From Promethearchaeota archaeon (GTDB lineage Archaea; Asgardarchaeota; Lokiarchaeia; Sigyniarchaeales; SOKP01), in NCBI GenBank assembly GCA_019058445.1, contig JAHPZA010000006.1:416001-480000 (forward strand): 64,000 nucleotides of DNA, read 5' to 3'. The notes beneath the pieces were generated by a model. It made no database searches. It worked only from the letters and a program-made list of their open reading frames with translations, and was not told the DNA's origin. Below, one piece after another: positions 61,006 to 62,675 of the stretch (its first letter is position 1; each line of letters opens with the position of its first letter). The position numbers and the translations under genes are program-made.

Positions 61006-61769
61006 AAGTAAAAAATTTAAATTTTCAATATAATTCTAAGTTTAGTATTCAGGATTTATCAATGAGAATTGAAGAGAACTCTAAATATGCTTTAACCGGA
61101 AATAACGGGGCTGGTAAGACCACGTTATTAAGATTATTGGTAGGTTTATTACGACCAAAATCTGGTACAATTAAAATCTTTGATAAAGCTCTTACCAGAA
61201 AAAAGAAAGATTTATGGCAAATCAGACAAAATATTGGATTTTTATTCCAAAATCCAGATGATCAACTTTTTGCTCCAACTATAGAAGAAGATGTGAGCTT
61301 TGGAGCACGAAATTTAAAACTTGAACCAGAAGAGGTTAAAAGACGCGTTAAATGGGCATTAGAAGCAGTAGATTTAGTAGATTTTAAGGATTTTTCACCC
61401 TTTAATCTATCATGGGGCCAAAAAAAAAGAGCATGCTTGGCAGGATTGCTTGTGATGAAGCCAAAATTATTGATATTGGACGAACCCTTCGCAAATCTTG
61501 ATTTTAAATCAATCATTAACCATCTTGCTATAATAGAAAGATTACGGAAAGAAGAAAATATGACAATTTTATTTACTTCACATAATTTGTTCTTTGTAGA
61601 GCACTGGGCTGATGAGATGCTAGTCTTAAATGAAGGAAGAGGAATTTTTGAGGGACATCCTAGAGAGGGATTGAACCTTCCTAATATTAGAGAAATTATG
61701 GGATCTTACGACGAGATTAGAGATTTAATTCAAAATCACAATTCTAACCAAAAACAATTGATATTTTAA
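60990..61769 (+). CDS. cbiO: ECF ABC ATPase (CbiO/NikO); start probably upstream of ATG 61062
   Basis: GNNGAGKT, FQNPDDQLF, LSWGQ, LDEP; in-frame AVEVKNLNFQY upstream of the first ATG. Confidence 0.85.
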   Translation: MIFAVEVKNLNFQYNSKFSIQDLSMRIEENSKYALTGNNGAGKTTLLRLLVGLLRPKSGTIKIFDKALTRKKKDLWQIRQNIGFLFQNPDDQLFAPTIEEDVSFGARNLKLEPEEVKRRVKWALEAVDLVDFKDFSPFNLSWGQKKRACLAGLLVMKPKLLILDEPFANLDFKSIINHLAIIERLRKEENMTILFTSHNLFFVEHWADEMLVLNEGRGIFEGHPREGLNLPNIREIMGSYDEIRDLIQNHNSNQKQLIF

Positions 61770-61889
61770 ATAAAAAGGTTTTACCAGTACTATAAATCTT
61801 AAATTTTATTTTTTTAATTGCTTAAATAAAACCACAAAATTTTTTACTTTCAATTTCTATAATCATTCTTGGGAAAGCGATGATGGAAT

Positions 61890-62173
61890 AACTGCGCTTC
61901 GAGGGCACATATGATCGAAGATGAGTATGTGTGCAAAACGGCGCAAACATCCAGAGTTTAATAATCAGTAAGTAAAAAACTGCAAGCAAAATGGGCTCTT
62001 AACTAAGCGATGATAGGTATCAATGCGATGAAGTGGAAGCCAGTTACCCAGATTGCAGATATGATTATGCCCCATAAAGGCATGAAATTAACGCCTAACA
62101 CGAGAGAACTTATTCGATTTTAAGGGAAAATCCTTAAAATGAGAAGTAAGAGTTAGTGCTTTAGGCAACAATA
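61890..62173 (+). ncRNA. Multi-hairpin H/ACA-like guide RNA
   Basis: Three stem-pocket-stem hairpins followed by ACA (61947), AUA (62059) and ACA (62168); UGA/GA K-loop-like motifs; T-tract at ~62182; GC-enriched and non-coding. Confidence 0.7.
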
Positions 62174-62204
62174 ATGCTGAATTTTTTTTAAAAAGAAATA
62201 ATTT

Positions 62205-62675
62205 TTAGAAACCAATTGAGTCTGGACTAAATAATTCTTTTAATTCATCGCTGATGGCTTCTTGATCGCTACTTTTTAGGTAACTTTCTAACACAGATGC
62301 AATTTTTGGTGCCCATTTTTTTATGAGAGCACGTACAAAGCCAATTTGAACATTTAGATCAGTCGCTAAACATAATACACCTTTTCCAGTTTTCACAGAA
62401 AAAATTAATCCCTTATCATATTCTGTAATTTGAGTTTTTATGTTTCCATATCCTAAAATAAGCCCTTGTTCTTCTCCAGCTGTAAAAACAGCTCCACCAA
62501 TGGCTCCAATTTTTTCAACAGAAATATCTTTGTTCCCAGAGAAGCTAAATTTAGATTGACTTAAAATAGTGAGGCCTGTATCATCGATAATAATCGCATG
62601 TTTTAATCCTGCGGTACTATTAATTATATTAGTAAGGATTTTCTTTAAAATGGCCTCGTCCTGAGAATAACTCAA
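62205..62675 (-). CDS. Roadblock/LC7 (MglB-like) protein
   Basis: AIIIDDTGL..IGAIGGAVF..LGYG..ITEYDKG..NVQIGFVR. Confidence 0.8.
   Translation of the reverse strand: MSYSQDEAILKKILTNIINSTAGLKHAIIIDDTGLTILSQSKFSFSGNKDISVEKIGAIGGAVFTAGEEQGLILGYGNIKTQITEYDKGLIFSVKTGKGVLCLATDLNVQIGFVRALIKKWAPKIASVLESYLKSSDQEAISDELKELFSPDSIGF

Follow-up and report, generated by a model that had tools for sequence, protein, structure and literature searches.

The closest described counterparts of the RNA considered here are archaeal box H/ACA guide small RNAs (sRNAs) that carry several guide motifs. In Pab40 of Pyrococcus abyssi, a group that also includes Pf7, Pho40 and Afu4, motif 1 directs formation of pseudouridine (Psi) at position 2588 of 23S ribosomal RNA (rRNA), a helix-89 uridine that is conserved as Psi in eukaryotes, and motif 3 directs formation of the helix-69 Psi2016 (PMC2377435). 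Motif 2 of Afu4 and Pf7 is predicted to act at the equivalent of P. abyssi position 2678, which is a pseudouridine in Haloarcula (Psi2621) and in Halobacterium (PMC2377435). Haloarcula Psi2621 lies two bases after m3U2619, and the double stem-loop RNA sR-h45 of Haloferax volcanii makes Psi2605, likewise two bases after the m3U (that of Haloarcula 2619), with its stem-loop 1 (PMC7075261). Here we describe an RNA gene in a Lokiarchaeial Asgard archaeon (assembly GCA_019058445.1), located in a stretch of 64,000 nucleotides (nt) from contig JAHPZA010000006.1 (positions 416,001 to 480,000, forward strand) that is referred to below, at its full length, as the window. The gene occupies window positions 61870-62180 on the + strand, is approximately 307 nt long, unannotated, conserved and expressed, and folds into three hairpins. 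Its product is very probably a three-hairpin box H/ACA guide sRNA, the Lokiarchaeial ortholog of Pab40, Pf7 and Afu4. As such it is a divergent ortholog and not a new class; the class, the three targets and their conservation in eukaryotes are already known from Pyrococcus, Archaeoglobus and Haloferax. The gene and its hairpins, which include kink-turn (K-turn) and kink-loop (K-loop) motifs, are as follows.

61870..62180, + strand: whole RNA gene, with three H/ACA hairpins and a 5′ K-turn; a conserved block in relatives and in metatranscriptome contigs
61893..61949, + strand: hairpin 1; lower stem 61893-98/61940-45, 5′ guide 61899-904, GA stem 61905-14/61923-32 with K-loop, 3′ guide 61933-36, ACA 61947-49
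61980..62061, + strand: hairpin 2; lower stem 61980-85/62053-58, 5′ guide 61991-96, distal stem-loop 62007-26, 3′ guide 62046-51, AUA 62059-61
62093..62170, + strand: hairpin 3; lower stem 62093-98/62161-66, 5′ guide 62102-06 (GAGAG), distal stem 62118-39, 3′ guide 62154-57 (UAGU), ACA 62168-70

A blastn comparison with 60 relatives recovered one homolog each in approximately 30 genomes of the same family, at 68-91% identity and over window positions ~61869-62180, and a 30-sequence alignment of homologs (A1) is the base for most of the per-position counts given below. RNAalifold predicted 58 pairs on this alignment, 29 of them with compensatory changes. In a fuller structure of 78 pairs, which was drawn by hand and compared with controls computed by script, 88.8% were paired and double changes occurred in 40 of the 78 pairs, versus 13-20 pairs when the 3′ partners were slid by 1-3 columns, and none of 500 permutations reached the observed compensatory count. 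An earlier note, made from the letters of the window, had proposed a multi-hairpin H/ACA guide at this place and had named covariation among relatives as a check, which these counts bear out. In the hairpin-1 domain, where 44 distinct sequences were aligned by fitting them to a model (R1) of the 5′ K-turn and hairpin 1, 96.6% were paired, with double changes in 14 of 17 pairs versus 4-5 in the slid controls. All three hairpins consist of a lower stem, a pocket and an upper stem, with covarying stems. G.U cells are in excess over A.C cells (160 vs 49), which favours the + strand as the folded strand. Guide positions are invariant or nearly so, while the stems and the neighbouring pocket bases vary, and this is the pattern expected of guide RNAs.

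The RNA is also found in transcript data. Parts of the stretch are present in six RNA libraries, and contigs from four metatranscriptomes (four studies), when mapped to positions 61600-62450, cover 61884-62177 only; the flanking genes, a control for DNA carry-over, have zero contig cover. Adapter orientation is alike in three runs, with the read-2 adapter on the left and the read-1 adapter on the right, which indicates a + strand RNA if the libraries were stranded by the deoxyuridine triphosphate method. One relative's contig continues into the C-box-like word near the 5′ end, an adapter junction falls at 62177 in one run, and the ends of the RNA are only roughly defined. The machinery for an H/ACA particle is encoded in the same genome (4.6 megabases, 31% G+C, 10 contigs), which contains genes for Cbf5 (433 bits), Nop10 (53 bits) and two L7Ae-family proteins, all over their cut-offs, and a Gar1-like match of 25.5 bits, under the Pfam cut-off of 29.3.

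Archaeal guide hairpins are described by two spacing rules: the stack that begins at the pocket-closing pair and ends at the K-motif's second G.A pair has 10 layers (PMC4652768), and the top of the pocket is followed by the ANA box at a distance of 14-15 nt in the 3′ direction (PMC2377435). In all three hairpins the 5′ strand of the GA stem is 10 nt long in 30 of 30 sequences, and the ANA box stands at 14 nt in 29 (hairpin 1), 27 (hairpin 2) and 23 (hairpin 3) of the 30. The box reads A-C/U-A throughout the alignment (30/30), and the UGA and (G/A)A of all K-motifs are invariant. Hairpin 1 follows both rules exactly, with 8 pairs plus 2 sheared G.A pairs and a distance of 14 nt; its GA stem measures 10/10 nt in 27-30 of the 30 sequences. 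Its upper stem (61905-12/61925-32) ends in GA 61913-14 facing UGA 61922-24, which forms the K-loop. Hairpin 2 has a K-turn in which AA 62005-06 stands against GA 62030-31 with GAU 62027-29 bulged, and hairpin 3 has one in which GA 62116-17 stands against GA 62141-42. Every element that the earlier note had listed for the three hairpins was recovered where it had been placed, including the ACA of hairpin 1 exactly 14 nt from the pocket apex, and its proposal of a multi-hairpin H/ACA guide draws support from this spacing, from the covariation and expression described above, and from the host's partial 23S rRNA.

Two further features of the spacing were seen. In hairpins 2 and 3 the GA stem has a 3′ strand (62030-62042 and 62141-62153) that exceeds 10 nt by exactly three bases in 27 of 30 genomes. 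Five genomes of the host's genus (L006-L010) carry a 10-nt insert (UGUUUCGGCU-like) between window positions 62158 and 62159, where the 3′ strand of hairpin 3 leads from the guide to the lower stem; the ANA box is thereby shifted from 14 to 24 nt, unless the insert is looped out.

Targets were sought in the rRNA of the host and its genus. Only the 3′ part of the host 23S rRNA is assembled, as 1504 nt at the end of contig C1 (L001:2936-4439, minus strand) that correspond to positions 1921-2987 of the Rfam LSU_rRNA_archaea model. This fragment was found by a pattern search and confirmed with Rfam; a whole-genome search for large-subunit rRNA had missed it. The host is without an assembled 16S rRNA, and a genome of the same genus (G006) supplied a 16S and a full 23S sequence.

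The pocket strands of hairpin 1 are UCGAGG (61899-904) and GCAA(A) (61933-37), with guide bases that are invariant in 27-30 of 30 sequences. At the site to which they are complementary the host 23S fragment reads GGCUUGCUUCCUCGAUGUCGG, so that GCAA pairs with UUGC and UCGAGG with CCUCGA in 4+6 Watson-Crick pairs that leave UU unpaired (UUGC-UU-CCUCGA). This is the sole match at canonical boundaries, under a strict setting, in the host 23S fragment and the G006 23S and 16S, and five other Lokiarchaeial 23S genes carry the word unchanged. In the motif UUC(C/U)UCGAUG the selected uridine is the first U, and we take it to be E. coli 2496 from an ungapped alignment with E. coli that was compared with the yeast table. 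The cytidine equivalent to yeast m5C2870 follows at a distance of five bases, which identifies the uridine with yeast Psi2865, the site guided by snR46. The predicted target of hairpin 1 is this uridine of helix 89 in the peptidyl-transferase centre. The same uridine, with its yeast and snR46 equivalence, had been chosen in the earlier note from an archaeal 23S sequence, and it stands on the host's own 23S; the sequence given there did not, since the host reads CUUGCUUCCUCGAUG and not (U)UUGCUACCUCGAUG, and the pairing is 4+6 rather than 5+6 base pairs (bp). The rRNA target search that had been suggested as a check thus returned a single match for hairpin 1, and the suggestion that an Asgard guide may share a target with a eukaryotic small nucleolar RNA is also supported, although such sharing was already established for the homologous Pyrococcus RNA.

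In hairpin 2 the lower and distal stems covary, and the pocket words GGGC and ACCC are invariant or nearly so. ACCCAG (62046-51) forms 6 pairs with CUGGGU (E. coli 2579-2584), a complementarity that the earlier note had correctly seen but had read as leading to U2585. There are 14 nt from 62045 to the ANA box in 27 of 30 sequences, and under the 14-nt rule 62045, which is U, A or C in the family, faces U2585, leaving U2586 and A2587 unpaired. On the other side of the pocket, 61991-96 forms 5 of 6 pairs with GACCGU, with one A.G mismatch, and a U-to-C change at 61992 in four genomes converts a G.U into a G-C pair with the target. The register on U2585 offers 6+3 pairs with the ANA box at 13 nt. 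We predict that hairpin 2 acts on E. coli U2586, with U2585 as the alternative; U2586 fits both the geometry and the known archaeal site better.

Hairpin 3 had been left without a target in the earlier note. Its lower and upper stems covary, and positions 62099-109 and 62152-58 are invariant. The host helix 69 reads GGGAG-UAACUAUAA-CUCUC, and UAGU (62154-57) can pair with ACUA and GAGAG (62102-06) with CUCUC, leaving U1917 and the two following A residues unpaired (4+5, UNN). In this register the closing pair gives a 10-layer GA stem with the ANA box at 14 nt, and the predicted target of hairpin 3 is helix 69, at E. coli U1917. An alternative 3′ guide register, GUUA (62152-55) with UAAC, would present U1915, perhaps as a second target of the same pocket. 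As the sole target U1915 was rejected, because it fits only with the pocket top shifted (16 nt), and it is retained as this possible second register. Helix 35 (UAGC-UG-GUUCUC, 4+6 pairs) was rejected because it needs the ANA box at 16 nt and a GA stem of 8-9 layers. A mimic of the sarcin-ricin loop, whose own sequence CACGAGAGAAC resembles, was dropped because the helix-69 pairing accounts for the invariant bases.

The relation of these sites to those of Pab40 depends on numbering. We take Haloarcula Psi2621 to be E. coli 2586 by the usual offset of 35. The equation of P. abyssi 2678 with Haloarcula 2621 then gives an offset of 92 between P. abyssi and E. coli, by which P. abyssi 2549, 2588 and 2603 become E. 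coli 2457, 2496 and 2511, or yeast 2826, 2865 and 2880; the yeast table lists exactly these three pseudouridines of the peptidyl-transferase centre ahead of Um2921. With this numbering, the likeness of the Lokiarchaeial RNA to Pab40, Pf7, Pho40 and Afu4 of the Thermococcales and Archaeoglobus extends over the number of H/ACA motifs per transcript (three), the 10-layer GA stem (exact in hairpin 1, and kept on the 5′ strand in hairpins 2 and 3), the ANA box at 14 nt, and the order of the targets, which are predicted in the Lokiarchaeial case: the helix-89 uridine, the U2586 equivalent and helix 69. As far as the labels in the published supplement go, motif 1 of Pab40 has a K-loop and motif 3 a K-turn (PMC4652768), as do hairpins 1 and 3. 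The two RNAs differ in that they have no detectable similarity in sequence or by covariance model, that the Lokiarchaeial lower stems are 5-6 bp versus 8-9 and the pockets larger, that the Lokiarchaeial motif 2 has a K-turn and distal stem-loop instead of a K-loop, and that the 3′ strand of the GA stem is longer by three bases in Lokiarchaeial hairpins 2 and 3. The Lokiarchaeial RNA also adds a fourth K-turn at its 5′ base and closing helices behind the ANA boxes, and its A+T-rich genome, consistent with sediment and wetland sources, contrasts with that of a hyperthermophile.

Stem-loop 1 of sR-h45 resembles hairpin 2 in targeting the U2586 equivalent and in having an AUA box. Stem-loop 2 of that RNA makes both helix-69 pseudouridines from one pocket (unpaired UNUN), and the registers GUUA and UAGU of hairpin 3 could do likewise. 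The differences are that sR-h45 has two hairpins, lacks a helix-89 module, and has a 56-nt linker in place of the clamps. Because the sites proposed for hairpins 2 and 3 recur, in the same order, among the known or predicted sites of Pab40/Afu4, and also among those of sR-h45, these weaker assignments are credible. Yeast snR46, the guide for 25S Psi2865 (PMC8307265, PMC1766470), shares only the target uridine with hairpin 1; it has the eukaryotic hairpin-hinge-hairpin-tail form with an H box and no K-turns. The eukaryotic build (two hairpins, an H box ANANNA, ACA 3 nt from the 3′ end, and no K-turn) is not that of the Lokiarchaeial RNA, which has three hairpins, four K-motifs and helices behind the ANA boxes.

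We propose that L7Ae would bind the K-turn or K-loop of each hairpin and that Cbf5-Nop10-Gar1 would bind its lower stem and ANA box. The open pocket would then pair with the 23S rRNA segments that flank a single uridine, and this base would be isomerised by Cbf5: U2496 in the case of hairpin 1, U2586 in that of hairpin 2, and U1917 (perhaps U1915) in that of hairpin 3. The fourth K-turn and the closing helices could tie the three modules into one compact particle.

Several points weigh against this proposal. Protein binding and the pseudouridines are what we infer for this organism from the RNA, its fold, spacing, complementarities and expression and from the core protein genes. The equation of P. 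abyssi 2588 with E. coli 2496 follows from numbering offsets and is not stated in the Pyrococcus paper. A search of Rfam at E up to 10 with the intergenic gap and five distant homologs returned nothing relevant, H/ACA families included, so that homology to Pab40 rests on architecture and target order and not on sequence. About 6% of shuffled rRNAs equal the hairpin-1 score under permissive scoring, which makes the pairing of hairpin 1, taken alone, suggestive and not decisive, and its 3′ guide, on the side that carries most weight, has only 4 bp (PMC2377435). At canonical geometry, U2586 ranks second among all rRNA uridines for hairpin 2 and the helix-69 site is tied second for hairpin 3, neither being significant alone; hairpin 2 needs A.G and U.U mismatches, and hairpin 3 needs an unpaired UNN. 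The pocket of hairpin 2 could be closed by mutual pairing of GGG with CCC, and CAC/GUG could lengthen the lower stem of hairpin 3. The 3′ strand of the GA stem in both hairpins is 13 nt versus 10, so that three bases must bulge, and Pyrococcus motifs tolerate at most one bulge (PMC2377435). Finally, each ANA box sits within an internal loop with a helix behind it, not in a free tail.

The most probable alternative, itself improbable, is that hairpin 1 alone acts as a guide and that the other two hairpins are degenerate or purely structural, either as L7Ae-binding arms or as rRNA-folding chaperones that pair without catalysis. The mismatched pairings, at sites that are not top-scoring in the rRNA, and a GA stem whose 3′ strand is three bases longer would suit such a role, as would the RNAalifold structure, which closes both pockets by GGG/CCC and CAC/GUG, and the presence of ACCCU in place of ACCCAG in hairpin 2 of six family members. 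Against it, hairpins 2 and 3 combine covarying stems with pocket bases that change little or not at all, and the ANA box and the GA-stem 5′ strand keep their spacing to the exact nucleotide, in other families as well. Moreover, U2586 and helix 69 are the sites guided by the homologous modules of sR-h45 and Pab40/Afu4, and Haloferax and Pyrococcus have functional guides with atypical UNUN and UNN pairings.

Slightly less probable again is that hairpin 2, hairpin 3 or both guide other sites, hairpin 2 acting on U2585 (CUGGGU-UU-AGA, 6+3 bp) and hairpin 3 on a 23S uridine in a variable region (GGCGUUA-UA-UUUCU, position 1257 of the G006 23S). Both pairings were found by scans, and the latter, with 7+5 pairs that include four G.U, scores 10.0 versus 8.0 for the helix-69 site in the same geometry. 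However, in the U2585 register the ANA box falls at 13 nt and the 5′ guide forms no more than 3 bp, and 13-nt distances and pairings of 3 bp per side have been reported as non-functional (PMC2377435, PMC7075261). The word at 1257 occurs in two 23S genes of the same genus and not in three 23S genes of other Lokiarchaeial families, whereas the guide bases of hairpin 3 are invariant in the family and retained in other Asgard families. That the RNA is instead a C/D-type methylation guide, or some L7Ae-bound RNA that merely resembles H/ACA hairpins, is very unlikely: this copy has a C-box-like RUGAUGA near its 5′ end and CUGA near its 3′ end, and no Rfam H/ACA model matches, but the 3′ CUGA occurs in only ~13 of 30 homologs, the 5′ box has its conserved partner in the internal GA 61954-55, no C′/D′ boxes or methylation guides of 10-12 nt were seen, and the three hairpins keep the H/ACA spacing of the ANA box and of the 5′ strand of the GA stem, carry ANA boxes and match three classic Psi sites. 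A terminal C/D pair of the 5′ RUGAUGA and the 3′ CUGA was ruled out for the same lack of conservation of CUGA.

A three-target H/ACA guide would yield three predictions that can be tested, namely that pseudouridines occur in functional centres of the Asgard ribosome, in helix 89 of the peptidyl-transferase centre, at U2586 and in helix 69. The guide is of archaeal type, with K-turns and three hairpins. Of its predicted targets, two correspond to yeast pseudouridines (Psi2865 and helix 69), and the third has been reported as Psi in Drosophila and mouse. Current understanding is not overturned by this RNA, and its fourth K-turn and clamps are the sole features that might be new. The elements in question are the following.

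61870..61874, + strand: 5′ strand of helix P0 (UGGGA); pairs with 62070-62074 behind hairpin 2, with G-C in 25-30 of 30 and few compensatory changes
61875..61887, + strand: bulged strand of the 5′ K-turn, C-box-like RUGAUGA; canonical stem (C-stem) 61875-78, bulge GAU 61879-81, GA 61882-83, noncanonical stem (NC-stem) 61884-87
61950..61959, + strand: non-bulged strand of the 5′ K-turn; NC-stem 61950-53, GA 61954-55, C-stem 61956-59
61961..61967, + strand: 5′ strand of the closing helix of hairpin 2; pairs with 62062-62068, paired in 27-30 of 30
62080..62083, + strand: 5′ strand of the closing helix of hairpin 3; pairs with 62174-62177, paired in 26-27 of 30, with compensatory changes in L025 and L029

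The 5′ K-turn is formed by the RNA's 5′ end together with the linker between hairpins 1 and 2, and it encloses hairpin 1 and its ACA box in an internal loop. UGA 61881-83 and A61955 are invariant and G61954 nearly so; the C-stem pair 61878/61956 is CG in 14 sequences, UG in 11 and UA in 5, the NC-stem pairs covary, and the 3b.3n position is variable and non-Watson-Crick. In other Asgard families the C-stem alternates among AGC/GCU, UGC/GCA and GGC/GCU. The closing helices likewise change in sequence, the distant homolog G060 having a 9-bp helix of different sequence at the place of the hairpin-2 closing helix and AGCUGG/CCAGCU at that of hairpin 3. Helix P0 may connect the 5′ end with the stretch that follows hairpin 2; it is mostly invariant, which gives it weak support, and it is not evident in G060. 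These features raise the possibility, to which we attach only tentative weight, that the Asgard form is a distinct structural variant, defined by a fourth C-box-like K-turn (xGC-GAU-GA ... GA-GCx, covarying in at least eight Asgard families) and by closing helices that confine the ANA boxes of hairpins 2 and 3 to internal loops. This organisation of a fourth K-turn and clamps goes unmentioned in the text, figures apart, of the H/ACA papers searched. If the variant is real and its extra K-turn binds L7Ae, it could nucleate or stabilise one compact particle with three Cbf5 modules.

In three independent metatranscriptomes, complementary DNA (cDNA) ends exactly at 61884, beside an adapter and one base past the GA of the 5′ K-turn. 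This end could reflect processing, a reverse-transcription stop at a modified base or a tight structure, or a second start, for which the TTCTATAAT word at 61855-63 would serve. If the Asgard form is a structural variant, the recurrent end might mark a modification or processing site.

With model R1, 114 of the 126 genomes sampled from the host's Lokiarchaeial family show a single copy, and weaker full-length matches were found in three of the other sampled Lokiarchaeial families (f2, f5, f7). With stricter filters, three single-contig genomes of family f2 gave no R1 match, which is no proof of absence. A search of the phylum added matches in eight further Asgard families. Most of the loci fetched from other families repeat the guide words, the 5′ K-turn and closing helices of differing sequence, and the 14-nt ANA spacing is also kept in G060. 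Some of these copies diverge, and one lineage is without hairpin 2. At locus L078 (genome G238, another Asgard family) the RNA is seemingly two-module, hairpin 1 and the 5′ K-turn being followed directly by a hairpin-3-like module (CACGAGAGAGC ... GUGUUAGUG); the ACCCAG module is absent from this homologous locus. The Rfam search that the earlier note had suggested as a check returned no family matching the window at the gathering score. Rfam models miss this RNA across the Asgard phylum, and a new covariance model, either R1 or full-length, would improve annotation.

The RNA gene lies in a gap of 435 bp, where G+C content is ~41% at 61850-62100 versus 15-25% just outside. Two further elements flank it.

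61840..61847, + strand: TATA-like, A/T-rich box of a putative promoter, ~24-31 nt upstream of the first conserved G (61871)
62183..62190, + strand: run of eight T, a likely archaeal transcription stop, as judged from sequence; RNA contigs end by 62177

A TTTATAA-like T-rich word stands at the same distance in most homologs in the alignment, suggesting a putative promoter, and T-rich tails follow the RNA in many homologs. Upstream of the gap is a gene for an ABC-type ATPase (61062-61769, + strand), which itself follows a gene for a CbiQ-type transporter (ECF transporter T component), and downstream is an open reading frame of 156 amino acids on the minus strand (62205-62675) without a Pfam match. 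No link between these neighbouring genes and the guide RNA was seen. The only Gar1-like open reading frame of the genome (98 amino acids) lies at C6:484066-484197, ~4 kilobases past the end of the window and ~6 kilobases from the guide RNA gene, a linkage that may be due to chance.

The 23S genes of the host's genus (L034, L035) are 3494-3517 nt long, versus ~2945-3129 nt in other Lokiarchaeial families, and carry inserts at different conserved sites. The host 23S has extra sequence directly after helix 69 (CUCUUAA, then CGAGCUCUC...), and the G002 and G006 23S have an insert after GUCGUGAG, near E. coli 2596. These inserts may be rRNA introns or expansion segments.

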